Below, piece by piece: positions 24,295 to 35,561 of a stretch of DNA of 64,000 bases. The notes beneath the pieces are model-generated. The model was not told the DNA's origin. It saw only the letters and a list, made by a program, of their open reading frames with translations, and made no database searches. The stretch lies in assembly GCA_963707345.1 (NCBI GenBank), contig CAVPPE010000003.1, positions 440,426-504,425 on the forward strand, in the 5' to 3' direction. The stretch is from an uncultured Chloroflexia bacterium (GTDB taxonomy: Bacteria; Chloroflexota; Anaerolineae; Promineifilales; UBA4811). Every line of letters begins with the position of its first letter. The first letter of the stretch is position 1. The position numbers and the translations under genes were made by a program.

Positions 24295-24813
24295 TTATTC
24301 GGCTCCTTCTGCGGCCGGGGGAGTAAAGACGCGGGTTGCCATCTCTTTATCCAGCATGTACAGACCCATCTTGCTGCCCTCGATCATCTTGAGTTGGTCG
24401 ACGATCTCTTTGGCGCTGGCCTCTTCTTCAACCTGTTCGTTGATAAACCAGTGGAGCAACGGCCGGCTGGCATAGTCGCCTTCCTCTTGCGCCAGCTTGT
24501 ACAGGTGATTGATAGTGCCGCTGATGTACTTTTCGTGTGCGTAGGCAGCTTCAAATGCCGCCAACACCGATTCGTATGCGGTCTTGGGTTTGTCCAGTGC
24601 GTGGAGCTCCACTTCGCCATCGCGTTCGAAGACAAAGGCGAAAAACTTCATGGCATGGAACAGCTCTTCCTGCGCCTGCACGCGCATCCAGTTGGCGAAA
24701 CCCGGCAGGTTTTGGCTCTCAAAATAAGCCGCCATCCCCAGGTAAATGTACGACGAGTTCAGTTCGTTCTTGATTTGAGCGTTGAAACCGTTGACCAGTC
24801 TTTCACTTAGCAT
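24295..24813 (-). CDS. ftnA: Non-heme ferritin
   Basis: NELNSSYIYL, QAQEELFHAMK and WFINEQVEEE ferroxidase residues. Confidence 0.93.
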   Translation of the reverse strand: MLSERLVNGFNAQIKNELNSSYIYLGMAAYFESQNLPGFANWMRVQAQEELFHAMKFFAFVFERDGEVELHALDKPKTAYESVLAAFEAAYAHEKYISGTINHLYKLAQEEGDYASRPLLHWFINEQVEEEASAKEIVDQLKMIEGSKMGLYMLDKEMATRVFTPPAAEGAE

Positions 24814-24940
24814 GATTGTTCTCCTTAATTGAAACAAGCTTTGTCAATCGCAAGCTATTTTACCACATTTTTATATGATGATTGTTAAAAATTCCCAGTG
24901 TCCCAGGAATCCGGTGATCATGGGGGCGCAATGACTCGAG

Positions 24941-27269: not shown

Positions 27270-29420
27270 TCACATTGTCACCCGCCGCATGCGCATACCG
27301 TTGAGGATTACGGCGACGGATGCGCCGACATCGGCGACAATGGCCAACCAGAGCGTTGCCAGCCCGGCCGCCGCCAGCGCAAACACAATCGCTTTGACCA
27401 CCAGCGCAAAGACAATGTTGGCGCGGATGGTCTGCCGGGTTTTCCGCCCCAGCCAGATCACAAATGGGAGTTGGGTCAGATCGTCGCCCATCAGCACCAC
27501 ATCGGCCGTTTCCATGGCCTGGGCGGACCCCGCGCCGCCCATGGCTATCCCCACCTCGGCTTGAGCCAGCGCCGGAGCATCGTTGACCCCATCGCCGACC
27601 ATGGCGACCGGTCCAAACCTGTCCGCCAATTTTGCAATGGCAGCCATCTTGTGCTCCGGCAGCAGCTCCGCCAGCACCTGATCCAGCCCTAATTCCCGGC
27701 CGATGGCTTGCGCGACCACCTGGCTATCGCCGGTGAGCATGGCGGTGTGCAGTTGCTCCGCTTTTAGCTGGCTCACCACGGCGCAACTCTTGGGGCGCGG
27801 GGTGTCGGCTACAGCGAACAGCCCGCAAACCTGGTTGCCGTGTTGCACCAGCATCACTGTTTTGCCCTCCGCCGCCAACTCTTCAGCCCGACGGCAGATC
27901 TCGGGTTCGTGGGGAAAGTGCCGGTCAAAGTGGGCGTGGCTGCCCACGGTGACCGTGGTATTGTTGATCGTCCCTTCAATGCCCCGGCCGCCCAGCACGG
28001 TCACGTCGCCGGCCGGGGCCAGCGCCACCTGACGGCGCTCTGCCTCTGCCAGCAGCGCGCGGGCCAGCGGATGGGACGACTGGGCTTCCAGTGAAGCGGC
28101 GTGGCGCAAGCCGCAATTCTCCGGGCACTCTCCGCAGGTGCACACGTCCAGGATGTCGGTGGCGACCGGCCTGCCGGCCGTGAGGGTGCCGGTCTTGTCA
28201 AATGCAAACACCCGCACCCTGCCGAGCGCATCCAGATAGCGCCCGCCCTTGATGAGCACGCCGCGGGAGGCGGCGTTGGTCATGGCGCTGACCACGCTGA
28301 CTGGAGTGCTAATGACCAGTGCACAGGGGCAGGCGATCACCAGCATTTGCAGTGCCCGCATCAGCCAACCCTGCGGGCCCCAGAATGGTTGCCCAAAGAG
28401 GAGTGGGGGCAGGGCGGCAACCAGCACGGCCGCCACAGCGACGGCCGGGGTGTACACACGGGCAAAGCGGTCGACGAAGCGTTGCACCGGCGCGTGGCGC
28501 GACCGGGCCTGCTGGACCAGCGCCACCATCCGGTTGAGCGTATTGTCGGCCGCCAAGTGAGTGACTCGGACTTGCAGCGCGCCGCTGCCATTGACCGTGC
28601 CGGCAAAGACCTGGTCGCTTGGCTCCTTTTCCACCGGCATGCTCTCCCCGGTGATGGGCGACTGGTCCACGGTGCTCCGGCCGGAGAGCACCACGCCATC
28701 CACGCTCACCCGGTCGCCCGGCCGGACCAGCACGTGATCTCCTACGGCCAACAATTCCACCGCAAGCTCCTGCAAACCCCCGTCGGGCAGCAACTTGTGG
28801 GCCATGGCTGGGGCCAGGTCCAGCAATGACGCCAGCGCGCCGCGCGCCCGATCGGCCGCATACCCCTCCAGCGCTTCTCCCAATGCAAAGAGGACCACCA
28901 CCACGGCCGCTTCGCCCCATTCGCCAATCACGGTCGCGCCGGTGACGGCGATAACCATCAGCGTGTTGATCCCCAGTGTGCGGCCACGCAACTCCCGCCA
29001 CGCTTGCTGCGCCACGGGAATCCCACCGACTGCAATGACGGCCGCAAATGTGCCTCTGGCGACGGCCGGGAGGCGAGCCAGGGACAGCACGAATCCCACC
29101 AAGGCCAGCAGCGCAGCGCCGGCGGTGAGGCCGGTGGCGGGAGAGGAAAAGAGGAATCGCAGAAAGCCCAATACCGGCCGGGCCTCTAACTGTCGGTGTT
29201 GCACCAGTCGGTGCCCGGTGGCGCTGACGGCGGCGCGGATCTGCTCGATCTCCGGCCGGCGGACACCAAAGGAGACGGTCAGCGTGCCGGCCGCCAGGTC
29301 CACCTGGCTATTGGCGACGCCTTCGATTTTGGCAACGGTCGCACGGACCTGCTCAGCGCAGTCCGCTCAAGTGAGCCCGGCTATGGTGTAGGTCTGCGTA
29401 TTGAGTTCTGTCTCAGTCAA
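27270..29420 (-). CDS. zntA: P1B-2 heavy-metal (Zn/Cd/Pb) P-type ATPase; N-terminal HMA domain with in-frame TGA (probable selenocysteine at codon 18)
   Basis: TGES, CPC, DKTGT, GDGVND, M7 Lys and M8 ADVG; upstream in-frame TTG with AGGAG RBS gives YTIAGLT-(TGA 29369-29367)-ADCAEQV. Confidence 0.85.
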
Positions 29421-29464: not shown

Positions 29465-29496
29465 ATTGTACACCTTCAAGTCGAGTTGAAGGTCAA
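29465..29496 (-). promoter_or_regulatory. MerR-type promoter/operator for the ATPase
   Basis: TTGACC-20 bp-TACAAT with dyad ACCTTCAA-N6-TTGAAGGT (29472-29493). Confidence 0.88.
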
Positions 29497-30245
29497 GGGT
29501 TGGGAGCTGACTCTTTCTCCAGGGCCAGAAAGAGTTGGGCAAAAAGAAAGGCATTGTCCCCATGGGCGATCAGCAGAGAGCCTTCAGGGTGGGATGCAAT
29601 CTGCGGTGCAGGATGGACCTGGCACTGGGACTCTAGTCCGGCCAACTCTTCCAGTGCGGCTCGGACCATCGGTTCCTGGCTTACAACCAGAATGTGATAG
29701 CTGGTTCCCGCCTGCCAGATGTGAACGTGACAACCGTGGAGCGGCTCCAACAGGCTCTGCGCCTCGGCCGAGCCCAGGCTACACCCGGTGCGTTGGACGA
29801 GCCATTCCAGAACCGTGTCCGCGTGGCCGGTGGACGTCGGGTCGGCACACACCTGGTTGAGCAGGCGCTCATAAAGCGATTCGGCCGCCTGGTTTGTCTG
29901 TCGCTCGCTCAGTTCCAGCAGCAGGTGCTCCAATTCGTGCCGCTGGACCATCAGCTCGGTCAACTGGCGTTCCAGTTCCAGGAACCGGTTTTCGGCCAGT
30001 GCGACGACCTCGGCCGTGCATGGGCCCTGCAGCAGCGCCTTGATATCGCCCAGCGAAAAACCTAGCCGCTGGGCCTGCTGGATAAAGCGCAGCGCCTGTT
30101 CCGCTTGTGGGTGAAAGAGCCGGTAGCCGGCCGCGCTCCGGCCGGCAGGGGCCAGCAATCCTTGCTCCTCGTAATAGCGGAGCGCGGATGTCCGCAGGCC
30201 GACCCGTTTGGCTAGCTGCCCGATGGTCAGCAAGGCGGAGGTCAC
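29493..30245 (-). CDS. MerR family transcriptional regulator with long Cys/His-containing C-terminal domain
   Basis: LTIGQLAKRVGLRTSALRYYEEQGLL...GYRLF...AQRLGFSLGDIK. Confidence 0.9.
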   Translation of the reverse strand: MTSALLTIGQLAKRVGLRTSALRYYEEQGLLAPAGRSAAGYRLFHPQAEQALRFIQQAQRLGFSLGDIKALLQGPCTAEVVALAENRFLELERQLTELMVQRHELEHLLLELSERQTNQAAESLYERLLNQVCADPTSTGHADTVLEWLVQRTGCSLGSAEAQSLLEPLHGCHVHIWQAGTSYHILVVSQEPMVRAALEELAGLESQCQVHPAPQIASHPEGSLLIAHGDNAFLFAQLFLALEKESAPNP

Positions 30246-30263: not shown

Positions 30264-30686
30264 CTAAATGAACAGGGTGATGGAAGAATCTCGCGCCTCT
30301 TTGATGTACATGCCCACCGCGCCGTATTCGTCAATCCATTCCTGGCGCAGCGCCCCTTTGCTGATGCCCATGATCTCCATGGTCATTTCGCAGGCAATGA
30401 CCTTGCCGCCCAACTCCTTAAAGTCATTCATCAACCGTTCCAGGGTGGCGACGTTGGCCTTTTTCATGCGCTGCTCGATCATCCATTTGCCCAGGCCAAG
30501 CATGTGCATCTTGGACAGCGGGCCTTTTGTGATGCCGCCTTTTTGCAGCCGTTGGAGTCCCCAAAAGGTAAAGTAGATGGACGCTTCCATCCCCATGGCC
30601 AGCGCTCCGTTGCCGATGATGAGCGCGCTGTACACTTTGTCCATGTCCCCGCTATGCAAGACGATTGTGGTTCGTTCGGTCTTCAT
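30264..30686 (-). CDS. DsrE/DrsH-like (DsrE2/YrkE type) sulfur carrier
   Basis: SGDMDK...IYFTFWGL...IACEMTM. Confidence 0.88.
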   Translation of the reverse strand: MKTERTTIVLHSGDMDKVYSALIIGNGALAMGMEASIYFTFWGLQRLQKGGITKGPLSKMHMLGLGKWMIEQRMKKANVATLERLMNDFKELGGKVIACEMTMEIMGISKGALRQEWIDEYGAVGMYIKEARDSSITLFI

Positions 30687-30753
30687 GTTCTCCTCCGGTG
30701 AGCGACGAACGACGGATGCCCGCCCTTTGTCGTACGTCCTTCGTCTTCCGTCC

Positions 30754-30975
30754 CTATCGTTGGATTTGGATAACCCAGTCGGTGTCGGTTCCTTCAACGC
30801 TGAGCAGTTCCAACTCCAGCGCCTCAGCCGCCATCGGGATCTCTACTTTAGATGCAGGGTGGGTCCCCACTACCTTGATTACGTCACCCGGTGCGGCCTT
30901 GCGCACCGCTTTGCGTGTCTCTACCAGCGGAACGGGGCAGGTCTCCCCACGTACATCAACTAGAATCTCGGTCAT
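30754..30975 (-). CDS. TusA/SirA family sulfur carrier
   Basis: VDVRGETCPVP motif; AAGGAG RBS. Confidence 0.92.
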   Translation of the reverse strand: MTEILVDVRGETCPVPLVETRKAVRKAAPGDVIKVVGTHPASKVEIPMAAEALELELLSVEGTDTDWVIQIQR

Positions 30976-31033
30976 GTTGTCTCCTTGTCGTGATAGCTCG
31001 GCTCAATTCCCCGGTTGCCTGAGCTGTTACTTC

Positions 31034-31699
31034 TCACCTTATCATTGGTAACGGGGGAAGTGCTTCTTTGTCAAATTGAACGATGACCTCGGTTACATCC
31101 CAGAGGTGTGCGATTTTTTCCTCTATTTCCTCGCGAATGTTGGCTGCAAACTGGTGAGTGGGGGGCAGGACTATTTCCACCCGCACCCGGCCGTCCTCGA
31201 CCTCGACCTCTTTCACCAGCTTGGTTCGCACCAGGTCCAGGCCCACCATCGGGTTCATGACTCGCTTGAGTCGTTTATAGACGACCTCGGTTGTGGTGGG
31301 GGTGCGCTCTTTGACCAAACCATGCTTTTCTTCGTAATTTTCGATAGCCGCCCGCAGCGAGTCGATGGCCAGCACCGAACAATGGACCTTGATGGATGGC
31401 AACCCGCCCAACGCGTCTGAAATGTCCTGCCAGGTCATGTTCTTGGCTTCGTCCAGGGTTTTGCCCTTGGCCATTTCGGTGATGATGGAGGCGGTGGCAA
31501 TGTTGGATGCGCAGCCATACGATTCAAAAGTGGCCTGAGTGATGGTGTGGGTCTCTGAATCGACCTTGAGATAAACGGCTACCATATCACCGCAGGCCGG
31601 GCTTCCCTCGACTGCTTTGGCGTCGGGGTCCTCAATCCGGCCGACGTTGCGCGGATTGCGGAAATGTTCCATCACGATGTCAGAATAGGGGATTGGCAT
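31034..31699 (-). CDS. IscU/NifU-N scaffold fused to a degenerate DUF59-like domain
   Basis: EHFRNPRNVG, PACGD, YGCAS, KVHCS; C-terminus LKRVMNPMVGLDLV...VRVEI. Confidence 0.85.
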   Translation of the reverse strand: MPIPYSDIVMEHFRNPRNVGRIEDPDAKAVEGSPACGDMVAVYLKVDSETHTITQATFESYGCASNIATASIITEMAKGKTLDEAKNMTWQDISDALGGLPSIKVHCSVLAIDSLRAAIENYEEKHGLVKERTPTTTEVVYKRLKRVMNPMVGLDLVRTKLVKEVEVEDGRVRVEIVLPPTHQFAANIREEIEEKIAHLWDVTEVIVQFDKEALPPLPMIR

Positions 31700-31700
31700 A

Positions 31701-32876
31701 TTACTCCTCGCTTGGGTCTTTGCCCAGTGGGCTGATGGCTCGCAGTCTCTCAATCACCTCGGTGATAGCGCCGGCCACGGCGTCCACGTCCTCCGGCCGG
31801 TTGAAACGGCCAAAGGTAAAGCGCACCGAGCCATGTGCCCGCTCGTGGTTGCCGCCGATACCCAGCATCACGTGGCTGGCCTCCAGCGAGCGACTGAAGC
31901 ATGCCGAGCCAGTGCTGACGGCAAAGCCACGCATGTCCAGATGCAATAGGATCGATTCGCCCTCCACAAAGCGGAAAGAGACGTTGGCGTTGTGCGGCAG
32001 CCGATGGATGGGGTGTCCGTTGAGAGTGGAATGGGGGATCCGCAGCAGTTGCTCGATCAGGCGGTCACGCATGGATTGCAGCCGGCCGGTCTCCTCCGGC
32101 GTCACCAGTTCAATTGCCTTGGCAAAGCCAACGGCGGCCGGGATGTTTTCGGCACCTCCGCGCAGGTTAAACTCCTGAAATCCGCCATCCATCCATTTTG
32201 CCAGCGGGGTTCCCTGGCGCACGTACAGGCCGCCGACCCCCTTTGGTCCGTGAACCCGGCTGGGGGTAATGGAGATCAGATCGATCGGCGTCTCCTGCAC
32301 GTTGATCGGGATGCGGGGGTAGGAGTGGGTGGCGTCGGTGTGGAACAGCACGCCGTTTTCCTTGCAGATAGCGCCAATGGCCTGGATGTCCTGCAGCGTG
32401 CCGATCTCCTGGTTGGCCGCTTGTACCGTGACCAGGATGGTCTGCGGGGTCAATGCGCTGCGCAGATGGTCCAGGTTCACCCGGCCGGTTGGGTCCACCG
32501 GCAGGAGTGTGACCGAAAACCCCTGTCTTTCCAAAGCCCGCACGCTGTACAGCACCGCAAAATCCTCGACGCTGGTGGTGATGAGGTGCTGCCCCTTCTT
32601 CCTACCCAACGCCATCGCCACCCCTTTGATGGCCAGGTTGCTGGCCTCGGTGCTGCCGGAGGTAAAGATGACCTCCTCCGGCGCAGCGTTCACCGAGCCG
32701 GCAATGCTGGCGCGGGCAGCGTCCAGCGCGTCCTTGGCGTCCACGCCGGGAGAGTAGCCGAATTGGGATGTGGCGACCGCGTACGTCTCAAAAAAGTAGG
32801 GGGTCATTGCCTCCAGCACCCGCTCGTCCAGGCGGGTGGCGGCCGCGTTGTCCAGATAGACTGTTTTTCCAAGCAT
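31701..32876 (-). CDS. IscS-like class V aminotransferase fold protein lacking the PLP lysine
   Basis: YLDNAA, FTSGSTEASN and STGSACFS retained; SxHK site reads TPSR. Confidence 0.85.
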   Translation of the reverse strand: MLGKTVYLDNAAATRLDERVLEAMTPYFFETYAVATSQFGYSPGVDAKDALDAARASIAGSVNAAPEEVIFTSGSTEASNLAIKGVAMALGRKKGQHLITTSVEDFAVLYSVRALERQGFSVTLLPVDPTGRVNLDHLRSALTPQTILVTVQAANQEIGTLQDIQAIGAICKENGVLFHTDATHSYPRIPINVQETPIDLISITPSRVHGPKGVGGLYVRQGTPLAKWMDGGFQEFNLRGGAENIPAAVGFAKAIELVTPEETGRLQSMRDRLIEQLLRIPHSTLNGHPIHRLPHNANVSFRFVEGESILLHLDMRGFAVSTGSACFSRSLEASHVMLGIGGNHERAHGSVRFTFGRFNRPEDVDAVAGAITEVIERLRAISPLGKDPSEE

Positions 32877-33218: not shown

Positions 33219-35561
33219 CTAGTCTCGGACGGGGAGCAGGAAAACCGGCGATTGAGATTGATCCACCACCCGTTTGGCCGCGCTGCCCATGATGAGGCGA
33301 TCCAGGCCACCGCGGCCGCGTGTGGATAGCATGATCAGGTCGGCGTGTTCGGCCTCGGCCGTCTCCACGATGGTTCGCACGGGATACGACCCGGTCACGA
33401 TGGTCTGCACGCTCACACACTCGTCACAAATGTAGGCTGCCACGTCGTTCAAATAGTGCCACAGTTGCCCCTCTGCTTCAGCACGCATTCTTCCCACCCG
33501 GTCAGGCGCTGCACCAAACTCATCCGCTTCCGGCACTTCGGGCACCGACAACAGCACAATCTTGGCCTTGAACGCGGCCGCCAGCGCCCTGGCGTACGGC
33601 AGAATGCGCTCGGCGAATTCAGAGCCGTCCAGATTGACCAGCAAGGTTTCAATCTTTGGCTCGCTCGAGCCATCAGACTGGACCAACAGCACCGGCTGGT
33701 TGATGGTGCTGACCAGCTTGCGGGCCACGCCGCCGCTTAACCAATGCCGGGCACCGGAGCCCCCCCGCGTGCTAGTCACTACCAGGTCGGCGTCGGTCTC
33801 ATTGATCAATTGGCCAATTGTCTCGGTGACCGAGCCGTTACCGGTGACAAAATCGACATTCAGGCCGGTTTTGCGCAGTTGGGCGGCCATGCGCGCAAGG
33901 TAATCTCTGTTCTCTTCCAGCGCTGATACCAGGGTGAGGTGGGTGGCATACTTTCGGCAGATAGTCTGTGCCATCGGCAATGCCTGTTCGGCAAAGGATG
34001 AGCCGTCGAGTGGAACCAACAAGTGGTCCGGGCCAATGGGGTCTCCGCTGAGCCGGACGGCCAGGGCTGGCGAGGGGTGCCAATCGGCCGGGGCAGCGCG
34101 GGCCCTCACCGGCCGGCGGCCGAGGTTGCCGGTCACCTGGCGGATCGCCTGGCCCAAACCAAAGCCGCCCAGCATGCCACCGTGAATTTCGCCCATTGCC
34201 TCTCTCATCGCGCCGGGTTCGCCCAGCGTGCGCCGGAAGTAGTCAAAGATGGTGTACAGGATGGGAATAAAAACCAGGTAGGTCCAGGCACCCTCCAAGA
34301 AACGTTCGGAAAAGATGAGGACGGTTGCGCCGGAGGTAAGCAATGCGGCGATGCTGGTCCCAATCAACAGCGCGGCGATTGTGGGCGTAAAATTACGGCC
34401 CAGTTCTCGCAACAATCTTTTGGCGGCCGCCCAGCCAGTCATGCTGAGCAGGATAAAGACCCCGGCCGCATAGATTGCAAGGTAAGTTTCCTCGTGGGTG
34501 CCAAACAGCATAAAGATGAGGCAGGCCAGCCCCACTTCAATCCAGACCGGCTTGTCAGCGACCTCGAACTTGTTCCTCTGGCCCAGCGAGGGGGGAATGT
34601 AGTGGCGTTCCTTGAGTCCCAGCGCCAGGTTTTGCAGCCCCTGAGCGCTGGCGGCCGAAGCTGACATCAACACCGCAATGCCCACCAGTGTGCCCAAGTA
34701 GGGTAGAGGCGCGGGCAGTATCAAGTCCATCGTCTGGGTAAAGACCGATACTTCTCTGTTCAACGGGTCTGCCAGATCAAAGATAGCCGGGCCCACAACC
34801 AGCATGGTCACGGCTGTGGTTCCCATGACGATGATCAGGCTACCGAACGCTTTGTTGCTTTTCTGCTGGGGTGTGCCGTCATAGGCGGCCACCAGGTTGG
34901 CAAACACCTCAATGCCGGTCATCACCGCCAGGATGCGCGTAAAACCGCCAAATGTGAAATGGAGGTTGGCTGGCGAAAATGCCTGCGGGTTGATACTGGG
35001 CAAGCGAAAGCCATATTTCCAGATGGAAGCAAAGACCATTAGCCAGAGCAGCAGCAGCACCCCGGCCGTGGCCGGGCCAAATGCCCGCGCCGCCACCTTT
35101 GGCCCCCGGTTCACCACCCATCCGATCAGGACGCTCAACACGACGGCAACCAAGGTGCGGTACTGAATCCCCAGCACGGCTTCGTTCAACATCGGAAAAC
35201 GGTCGGCGATAAAGGTGACCAGGGCGGCCATGCTGACCAGGAAGGTGAGCGTGTACTCAATGAAGGTGATGCTGGCGTTAACTTTGACCGCCCACCGGCC
35301 GAACTCTTCCTCGCTCAACCCGCTGCCGCCGCTGCCATCGGTCACCCAGTTCATCACCAGCCGGTACATGGCGGAAACCATGGTGATGGTCAGGATGACC
35401 AGCCAGATCGTGGCGCCAAAGGTGATGCTGGCAACACCTCCGACAACGATCAGTTTGAGAAATGGCCCAAACACGTACAGGGGGGAGGTCGCCGGATCGC
35501 CTCCGCCGGCCAGGGCGCCTTCCAATGAATTTGAGAGCTTGTGGGTGGGTGCGTGCGCCAC
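33219..35561 (-). CDS. APC-superfamily transporter fused to two universal stress protein domains
   Basis: About 12 TM (TGIEVFAN motif) followed by LLVPLDGS and LLVNLDGS...STRGRGGLDRLIMGS. Confidence 0.82.
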   Translation of the reverse strand: MAHAPTHKLSNSLEGALAGGGDPATSPLYVFGPFLKLIVVGGVASITFGATIWLVILTITMVSAMYRLVMNWVTDGSGGSGLSEEEFGRWAVKVNASITFIEYTLTFLVSMAALVTFIADRFPMLNEAVLGIQYRTLVAVVLSVLIGWVVNRGPKVAARAFGPATAGVLLLLWLMVFASIWKYGFRLPSINPQAFSPANLHFTFGGFTRILAVMTGIEVFANLVAAYDGTPQQKSNKAFGSLIIVMGTTAVTMLVVGPAIFDLADPLNREVSVFTQTMDLILPAPLPYLGTLVGIAVLMSASAASAQGLQNLALGLKERHYIPPSLGQRNKFEVADKPVWIEVGLACLIFMLFGTHEETYLAIYAAGVFILLSMTGWAAAKRLLRELGRNFTPTIAALLIGTSIAALLTSGATVLIFSERFLEGAWTYLVFIPILYTIFDYFRRTLGEPGAMREAMGEIHGGMLGGFGLGQAIRQVTGNLGRRPVRARAAPADWHPSPALAVRLSGDPIGPDHLLVPLDGSSFAEQALPMAQTICRKYATHLTLVSALEENRDYLARMAAQLRKTGLNVDFVTGNGSVTETIGQLINETDADLVVTSTRGGSGARHWLSGGVARKLVSTINQPVLLVQSDGSSEPKIETLLVNLDGSEFAERILPYARALAAAFKAKIVLLSVPEVPEADEFGAAPDRVGRMRAEAEGQLWHYLNDVAAYICDECVSVQTIVTGSYPVRTIVETAEAEHADLIMLSTRGRGGLDRLIMGSAAKRVVDQSQSPVFLLPVRD

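Follow-up and report, generated by a model that had tools for sequence, protein, structure and literature searches.

The closest described relative of the system analyzed here is the IscS2-IscU pair of Archaeoglobus fulgidus (PDB entries 4eb5, 4eb7 and 4hvk; D199K variant, 4r5f), in which a protein of the IscS-type fold lacks the lysine that binds pyridoxal phosphate (PLP). The A. fulgidus IscS was reported to be inactive and to provide a cysteine ligand to the [2Fe-2S] cluster of IscU (PMC7585200, PMC13066941), and IscS1 of M. acetivorans, which is also without this lysine according to PMC7585200, is suspected of a non-catalytic docking role. In anaerobes, the minimal IscS/IscU systems (MIS, with the proteins MisS and MisU) likewise consist of a two-component core without chaperones. 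A 2026 review (PMC13066941) describes MIS as able to use sulfide; according to it, minimal Fe-S systems have no known sulfurtransferase, and the source of sulfur in organisms without cysteine desulfurases is still open. In this work, we analyzed a stretch of 64,000 nucleotides from an uncultured Chloroflexia bacterium (contig CAVPPE010000003.1, positions 440,426 to 504,425; hereafter the window), which encodes a lysine-less IscS/NifS-type protein (IscSx) followed by an IscU~DUF59 fusion, a TusA-family sulfur carrier and a DsrE2B-like sulfurtransferase. These four genes would constitute a self-contained Fe-S assembly module of the minimal type that operates without the PLP chemistry of IscS. 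The module differs from MIS as described, which has no dedicated sulfur carriers, DUF59 fusion or ferritin.

Other types of systems share components with the window locus. In the IscS hub of E. coli (IscS-IscU and IscS-TusA(-TusBCD)), an IscS-type protein likewise works with IscU, TusA and a member of the DsrE family. The window has a single DsrE2B-like gene in place of TusBCD, and no TusE, MnmA, HscAB, IscA or Fdx gene is present in the operon (the genome was not searched for the last three). In the rhd-tusA-dsrE2 clusters of sulfur oxidisers and in the archaeal DsrE2B/DsrE3A-TusA sets, TusA also stands beside a DsrE2-type protein with one active cysteine, and such homologues were reported to exchange persulfide or thiosulfonate (PMC11094781). 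Those systems, however, supply sulfur to dissimilatory oxidation (rDsr, sHdr). The module instead has Fe-S assembly proteins as neighbours, and the loci collected for this study showed no dsr or shdr genes. A literature search found no paper describing the combination of IscSx, IscU~DUF59, TusA and DsrE2.

The four genes, given as all other features in window numbering, are the following:

31701-32876, reverse strand: IscSx, IscS/NifS-type protein without the PLP lysine, 391 amino acids (PF00266, 227 bits over the whole profile)
31034-31699, reverse strand: IscU~DUF59 fusion protein (PF01592, 141.7 bits, and PF01883, 56.4 bits)
30754-30975, reverse strand: TusA-family sulfur carrier (PF01206, 68.9 bits)
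30264-30686, reverse strand: DsrE2B-like sulfurtransferase with a single conserved cysteine, Cys99 (PF13686, 121 bits)

The TAA stop codon of IscSx is one base from the ATG of IscU, and upstream of tusA and dsrE2 there are 58 and 67 nt, each stretch with a ribosome-binding site of the GGAG type; by this arrangement the four genes look like one operon. The promoter and terminator scan gave nothing over the shuffled expectation, and RNA-library run X7 (assembled contigs) contained one identical 205-nt contig (30432-30636) inside the dsrE2-like gene, which is no proof of transcription. The tight linkage, the open reading frames and the domains are as proposed in the first-pass annotation, a reading of the bare sequence. 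IscSx missed every NCBIfam equivalog cut-off (best match, TIGR03402 NifS, 434.7 bits against 530.75), as did the IscU part of the fusion. TusA scored 35.6 bits against the cut-off of 78 for the E. coli-type TusA equivalog, and the DsrE2-like protein scored 63.8 bits against 210 for the DsrE2 equivalog NF047629, so the latter is considered a DsrE2B-like relative rather than the DsrE2 of sulfur oxidisers.

We propose that a non-catalytic IscS of the Archaeoglobus type docks IscU and that persulfides on TusA and DsrE2, or free sulfide, supply the sulfur in place of cysteine; the chances for and against this reading are about evenly balanced. Its best-supported part is already familiar from A. fulgidus, namely a non-catalytic IscS, which here comes together with two persulfide carriers and iron storage. 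The module is a defined four-protein candidate for the sulfur-delivery step of minimal Fe-S systems, and the operon may show how some anaerobes build Fe-S clusters without cysteine sulfur.

The alignment of IscSx comprised IscS of E. coli K-12 (locus L116), 120 close homologues and 131 lysine-bearing representatives; residues of IscSx are given below in E. coli numbering (Ec) unless stated otherwise. Nine positions are replaced (N35V, D79S, H104D, N155Q, Q183H, H205S, K206R, Y208H and T243A), while T76, N154, D180, R354 and the Cys328 loop (STGSAC; Cys326 in the protein's own numbering) are retained. All residue calls of the first-pass annotation (His-Lys to Ser-Arg, EDFAV, DATH, and the retained STGSAC) proved right in this alignment. 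Among the lysine-bearing representatives, His104 is present in 130, Gln183 in 128 and Asn155 in 126 of 131. In E. coli IscS, the single changes H104Q, D180G, Q183E, K206A and C328S were each reported to abolish desulfurase activity (PMC9978102). Since three of these five positions (H104, Q183 and K206) are changed in IscSx, desulfurase activity of the protein is very unlikely. IscSx belongs to the aminotransferase class V family by its PF00266 match and its modelled fold, which is predicted to be intact (AlphaFold2 with a 30-row alignment: predicted template modelling score 0.85, mean predicted local distance difference test 81.6; low confidence at the termini, at residues 30-44 and 230-243, the latter being the loop that normally carries T243, and in the Cys loop). 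From the features of class I cysteine desulfurases it has Asp180, Arg354 and Cys328 and lacks the Schiff-base lysine together with His104, Gln183 and Asn155.

The suggested parallel to A. fulgidus and the pseudo-enzyme idea are well supported by these data and by the structure search, where the A. fulgidus pair 4eb5 was the best solved match for both IscS (E 5e-99) and IscU (E 1e-37). As in A. fulgidus, the loop cysteine is kept and IscU is encoded next door, by which IscSx would be an Archaeoglobus-type protein. The two differ in the rest of the pocket: the A. fulgidus protein keeps His104, has alanine at Gln183 (histidine in the window clade) and changes His205, whereas the window clade has fixed replacements at H104, N35, N155 and Q183. 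The window system also differs in being bacterial, in the fusion of IscU to DUF59, and in its linkage to TusA, DsrE2 and often ferritin.

The 120 homologues are the best database matches, 75-100% identical and mostly from Anaerolineae and Chloroflexota metagenome-assembled genomes (MAGs). The neighbourhood survey covered 83 loci, of which 80 came from species-representative genomes (64-80% identity) and 3 from the family of the window genome. Position Ec206 is leucine in 110 of the homologues, arginine in 5 and threonine in 5; in the loci it is threonine in 44 and leucine in 35, with methionine, valine, arginine and a broken copy once each. Lysine occurs in none of either set, which clearly speaks against strain-specific substitutions as a sign of decay, a possibility that the first-pass annotation had raised. 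The replacement residues themselves are fixed or nearly so among the homologues (V35 118, S79 120, Q155 120, H183 118 and H208 120 of 120; Asp at Ec104 in 115 and Asn in 5), and D180, R354 and Cys328 are present in all 120, with the loop STGSACFS invariant. Only Ec243 is variable among the replaced positions (E 35, A 34, V 19), and His205, changed to serine in IscSx, is kept in most of the clade. Such fixation argues for a pocket remodelled under selection, not relaxed, and indicates that IscSx is not a product of decay in one strain. Reading frames are open in 82 of the 83 loci, and IscSx proteins from different classes are 64-80% identical. The exception, from the window's own family (genome G003, L034:6279-7439), is interrupted close to the former lysine position by two TGA codons and what looks like a frameshift, and reflects either decay or an assembly error in this 57%-complete MAG.

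Linkage of the four genes is conserved over the surveyed loci: IscU was found in 79, DUF59 in 75, TusA in 72, DsrE2 in 61; the set is complete in 60, and most loci without IscU, DUF59 or TusA are truncated by contig ends. By record title, the 80 loci come from Anaerolineae, Dehalococcoidia, Thermoflexia and Ardenticatenales, with a few MAGs labelled Syntrophaceae or Deltaproteobacteria. The order IscS-IscU~DUF59-TusA-DsrE2 occurs in 59 loci and TusA-DsrE2-IscS-IscU~DUF59 in 13, thus the linkage has outlived a rearrangement. In 15 of the 83 loci a ferritin gene is inserted between IscSx and IscU. Two more loci have it close by, directly after DsrE2 in L035 and a few kb downstream in L033.

The IscU part of the fusion (residues ~1-130) has Cys36, Cys63, Cys107, Asp38 and His106 with the ACGD and HCS motifs, and the three cysteines are present in 120 of 120 homologues. 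Many DUF59 proteins carry a conserved Cys motif. The DUF59/SufT-like part of the fusion (residues ~138-205), which the first-pass annotation had called Cys-less, has no conserved cysteine, and any cysteine at all occurs in only 15 of 120 homologues. In TusA, the Cys13-Pro14-x-Pro16 (CPxP) motif is invariant in 30 of 30 sequences, and Cys13 is present in all 72 loci that have TusA. Cys99 of the DsrE2-like protein was found in 60 of 60 matched loci; the nearest solved chains, 3pnx and 2qs7, have the cysteine aligned, and 2qs7 was described as an archaeal DsrE2B homotrimer (PMC11094781).

Both docking surfaces appear to be retained by IscSx. In E. coli IscS, mutation of W45, E49 or D52 was reported to abolish TusA binding, with E49 and D52 salt-bridged to R27 and R31 of TusA (PMC2854127). 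The equivalents of the contacts E49, D52 and R55 are conserved in the homologues (Ec49 D 117, Ec52 D 104 and Ec55 R 120 of 120); Ec49 is glutamate in only 32 of 131 canonical representatives. On the TusA side, Arg21 is invariant and Arg25 at least 90% conserved in the 30 sequences, and they lie 8 and 12 residues past the active cysteine, just as R27 and R31 do relative to C19 of E. coli TusA. The IscU-contact helix 309-316 is conserved as in E. coli, with E309, G310, E311, L314, L315 and H316 invariant; at the other two positions, serine is found in 119 and isoleucine in 97 of the 120 homologues. The complex prediction for two IscSx chains with TusA scored 0.04 against a mark of 0.32, which speaks neither for nor against binding.

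The phylogeny of lysine-less IscS proteins, which had been suggested together with the neighbourhood survey, points to repeated loss. Lysine is absent in 19 of 150 representatives of 50%-identity clusters, and in a FastTree phylogeny of 155 rows its presence or absence requires no fewer than 7 changes. A starred (97) group of 10 rows, all lysine-less, contains the window clade. Rows with an A. fulgidus-like signature (H-D-A-N-D-C) group apart from it, and common descent of IscSx with the lysine-less protein of A. fulgidus, placed here by signature alone because its sequence was outside the tree, is therefore not indicated. All IscS proteins of the set with an IscU~DUF59 fusion behind them fall into one starred clade of 25 rows, whose members share valine (once leucine) at Ec35 and a changed Ec155. 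Within this clade L138 still carries the lysine, differs only by N35V and N155Q and has the full IscU~DUF59-TusA-DsrE2 set, while the lysine-bearing L131, L133, L139, L140 and L141 have Q183L in addition. Lysine was lost at least 4 times in the clade (L135-137 by L131; L143 by L140/141; P0123/L126/L127; the window clade), the branch order inside the FastTree clade being read with care. The lysine-bearing members indicate that the module formed around an IscS with lysine and that the PLP site was eroded afterwards, stepwise and repeatedly. This natural series, from lysine-bearing to fully remodelled IscS, shows an enzyme turning into a scaffold.

Within the window's family, 4 of 6 genomes carry an ortholog of IscSx (E 1e-166 or better). 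None was found in the 34 genomes of the neighbouring family, where only canonical paralogues of 38-45% identity occur; the count over the two families includes one genome flagged unpublished. Of 400 other sampled Chloroflexota genomes, 6 have an ortholog, across five families. The patchy occurrence and the 64-80% identity between classes suggest either movement of the module as a unit or a very strong constraint on it. The sister protein P0123, with which the metagenome loci were gathered, retrieved only the window's clade from the 400 Chloroflexota genomes, and its own group was not found there. Among the metagenome loci, L167-L189 contain a second, unrelated lysine-less IscS group beside a plain IscU without DUF59 (Ec155 S/A, Ec183 A, Ec205 D, Ec206 Q, Ec354 V), thus lysine loss recurs in environmental IscS proteins.

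Under the proposed mechanism, IscSx would serve as a non-catalytic dock for IscU~DUF59 through the conserved helix 309-316 and the C-terminus, and its mobile loop cysteine would act as a persulfide relay point, as the fourth cluster ligand in the manner of A. fulgidus IscS, or as both. In E. coli, IscS is the sulfur source; IscSx is predicted to be unable to make persulfide, so the flow of sulfur must start elsewhere. Because IscSx could not load itself and its TusA dock is conserved, TusA together with DsrE2 is the likeliest donor. Sulfur would enter as persulfide on TusA (Cys13) and on the DsrE2B-like protein (Cys99), both loaded from environmental or metabolic sulfane sulfur, or directly as sulfide. 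Iron would be drawn from ferritin, and the DUF59 domain may help to pass clusters to target proteins. We infer from these comparisons the flow from TusA/DsrE2 to IscSx/IscU, the source that loads the two carriers, and the roles of ferritin and DUF59. Supply of sulfane sulfur by TusA/DsrE had been suggested in the first-pass annotation; it is still something that we infer, strengthened by the conserved TusA dock and by genomes without another desulfurase.

A more far-reaching version of this mechanism is a cysteine-independent bacterial line of Fe-S assembly, in which sulfane sulfur passes from TusA and the DsrE2B-like protein to the IscSx loop cysteine and then to IscU~DUF59, with iron from ferritin, and which would be the sole IscS-type system in some Dehalococcoidia-type organisms. 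We regard it as tentative, with the greater weight of probability against it; if true, it would represent the missing sulfur-delivery step in anaerobes without cysteine desulfurase. As a bolder addition, the old PLP pocket, which conserved Asp104, Asp180, His183, His205 and His208 now line, might have become a metal- or ligand-binding site.

Several observations weigh against the proposed sulfur supply. In E. coli sulfur flows from IscS to TusA, and, as persulfide exchange between cysteines is reversible, the direction proposed here is a tentative one. Lysine-bearing members of the clade have the same TusA and DsrE2 neighbours, so that these carriers perhaps began as acceptors, and they may still serve another pathway. 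DsrE2 was unmatched in 22 of 83 loci, seven of which are at least 10 kb long (L036, L053, L058, L081, L085, L089 and L103), and one relative (G003, L034) has the broken IscSx copy. The window genome encodes SufS with SufU and a NifS/IscS paralogue with an intact site, from which sulfur could come. Finally, the comparison of desulfurase content given below rests in part on 13 TusA-first and 12 IscS-first genomes for which completeness is not given.

Free sulfide is the main alternative to TusA/DsrE2 as the donor. In its pure form, this explanation holds that IscSx only stabilises IscU and contributes a cysteine ligand, free sulfide enters, and TusA and DsrE2 have another purpose, such as tRNA or cofactor thiolation or sulfane-sulfur buffering. 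The A. fulgidus pair, the best structural match, sets the precedent of an inactive IscS that ligates the IscU cluster (PMC7585200, PMC13066941), and in E. coli without iscS, H2S was reported to support assembly that depends on IscU (PMC13015791). The 22 loci without a DsrE2 match are in line with this explanation, as are the springs, sediments, brines, digesters and biofilms from which many source MAGs come, although a sulfidic or anoxic state is our reading of these habitats and stands in no record title. However, the acidic TusA-dock residues of IscSx and the TusA arginines are conserved more in the dead clade than in canonical IscS, TusA is still linked after the gene-order rearrangement, and the loci showed no acceptor of the MnmA, TusE or DsrC type; we hold the pure form to be rather unlikely. 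The alternative that IscSx is an adaptor for an active desulfurase elsewhere, either as heterodimer with a lysine-bearing IscS/NifS or by receiving SufS/NifS persulfide via TusA, is improbable to a clearly greater degree. It fits the SufS, SufU and intact NifS/IscS paralogue of the window genome, the SufS and SufU-like protein inside L046 and the SufU-like second IscU match (31-40% identity) in 6 loci (L043, L046, L053, L058, L077 and L102), and the at least 3 PF00266 matches in each of 12 sampled genomes with the IscS-first, Anaerolineae-type order. Yet the window paralogue is only 42% identical to IscSx, and in G203 (1.4 Mb, 97% complete) the PF00266 matches below E 1e-20 are IscSx and a BhcA-like aminotransferase only, with no other match of the IscS/SufS type; its remaining Fe-S genes encode SufC together with a SufB/SmsB-like protein and, beside a second IscU-like gene, an Mrp carrier. 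In 7 of 13 TusA-first genomes, IscSx (coordinates matched to the loci) is the sole PF00266 match below E 1e-40. These genomes speak against the view that the module generally requires an active desulfurase as partner, and the heterodimer put forward in the first-pass annotation is disfavoured as a general mechanism.

Residual C-S cleavage of cysteine or another substrate, with non-covalent PLP or a different cofactor, would be compatible with the retained D180, T76 and R354 and with the report that E. coli K206A still holds some PLP (PMC9978102), but at least 5 pocket residues are replaced together and the phosphate-binding T243 position is free to vary. The related idea of a decaying pseudogene can point to the broken L034 copy, against 64-80% identity across classes and open frames in 82 of 83 loci. 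Together these two explanations have very little probability. Lowest of all we place a selenium relay, the second option of the first-pass annotation, in which TusA/YedF-like and DsrE proteins would bring selenium to a selenocysteine-lyase-like protein. TusA has a weak YedF-family similarity (33.6 and 28.5 bits, under the cut-offs of 79 and 110). On the other hand, selenocysteine lyase requires the same PLP lysine, and the neighbours are an Fe-S scaffold and ferritin. The selenium reading was rejected because the search of the 97%-complete window genome gave no SelD match over the cut-off (best, 95.1 against 125 bits).

Proteins of the clade are named 'cysteine desulfurase' or 'cysteine desulfurase NifS', which would overstate sulfur mobilisation in metabolic reconstructions of Chloroflexota. 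As a separate observation, a paralogue in G345 keeps the loop cysteine (SGSAC). In several small Dehalococcoidia-type genomes, lysine-bearing canonical IscS domains lie inside open frames of 1129-1156 amino acids (G122:C1:73366-74445; G464:C66, G466:C15 and G468:C71), which suggests a large fusion protein.

The following genes lie downstream of the operon in the window:

29493-30245, reverse strand: MerR-family regulator with a long C-terminal extension, a neighbour and only a possible member of the module
27270-29303, reverse strand: CPC-type heavy-metal P1B-ATPase, a neighbour
24295-24837, reverse strand: ferritin (PF00210), a possible accessory iron source

The MerR and P1B-ATPase genes directly follow the operon, and these two and a malic enzyme gene set the ferritin apart from it. 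The MerR extension (~130 amino acids) matches no family, and with the window MerR as query such a gene adjoins the module only in L034 among the 83 loci. Copies of the P1B-ATPase that are 68-70% identical occur downstream of DsrE2 in L033, L038, L052, L055 and L082 and upstream of IscSx in L051; a 52% identical one is downstream of MerR in L034. Directly upstream of the operon, on the same strand, the gene at 33219-35561 encodes a protein of 780 amino acids that has a long membrane section and, at its C-terminus, two Usp domains; the protein has this position in L034, L035 and L060 as well.

Greedy clustering of open reading frames, from which the ferredoxin, Crp/Fnr and encapsulin counts are taken, identified a small 4Fe-4S ferredoxin upstream in 8 loci, a Crp/Fnr regulator upstream in 8 loci, and an encapsulin with a ferritin-like protein in 4 loci. 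Genes for encapsulin (PF04454) and a rubrerythrin/ferritin-like (EncB-like) protein were observed near the module at L099:2884-3681, L103:2826-3392 and L234:11199-12795, genome G203 included, and strengthen its connection with iron storage. A metallo-beta-lactamase and rhodanese gene is present in 7 loci, which thereby resemble, with TusA and DsrE, the cst operon of Staphylococcus aureus; the latter is reportedly a sulfide-stress detoxification operon with CstA (rhodanese-TusA-DsrE) and CstB (metallo-beta-lactamase-rhodanese) and without IscS/IscU. Among the examined loci, a two-domain rhodanese was seen in one (L099), SufS with a SufU-like protein in one (L046), and an Asp/Glu-racemase-like gene in three. 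Both kinds of rhodanese gene give the module a sulfane-sulfur setting, which counts in favour of the proposed mechanism.

In 10 loci (for example, L114:8407-8652), mostly between TusA and DsrE2, a gene encodes a protein of 81 amino acids in which an NPCC motif is conserved and a GGGGH stretch occurs; it matches no Pfam family, an atlas search returned unnamed clusters only, and it could be another small sulfur carrier. In L043 (10017-11371), a CdhD-like corrinoid-domain membrane protein (PF03599) and then a 2x[4Fe-4S] ferredoxin with a Cys-rich tail are encoded between TusA and DsrE2, with a hemerythrin gene adjoining; we take this pair to resemble the HgcA/HgcB mercury-methylation pair. Serine-acetyltransferase-like hexapeptide repeats fused to DUF59 were found close to the module at L058:3794-4795 and L046:10353-10970, the latter having SufS, SufU, a cysteine synthase fragment and a CcdA-like membrane protein as neighbours.

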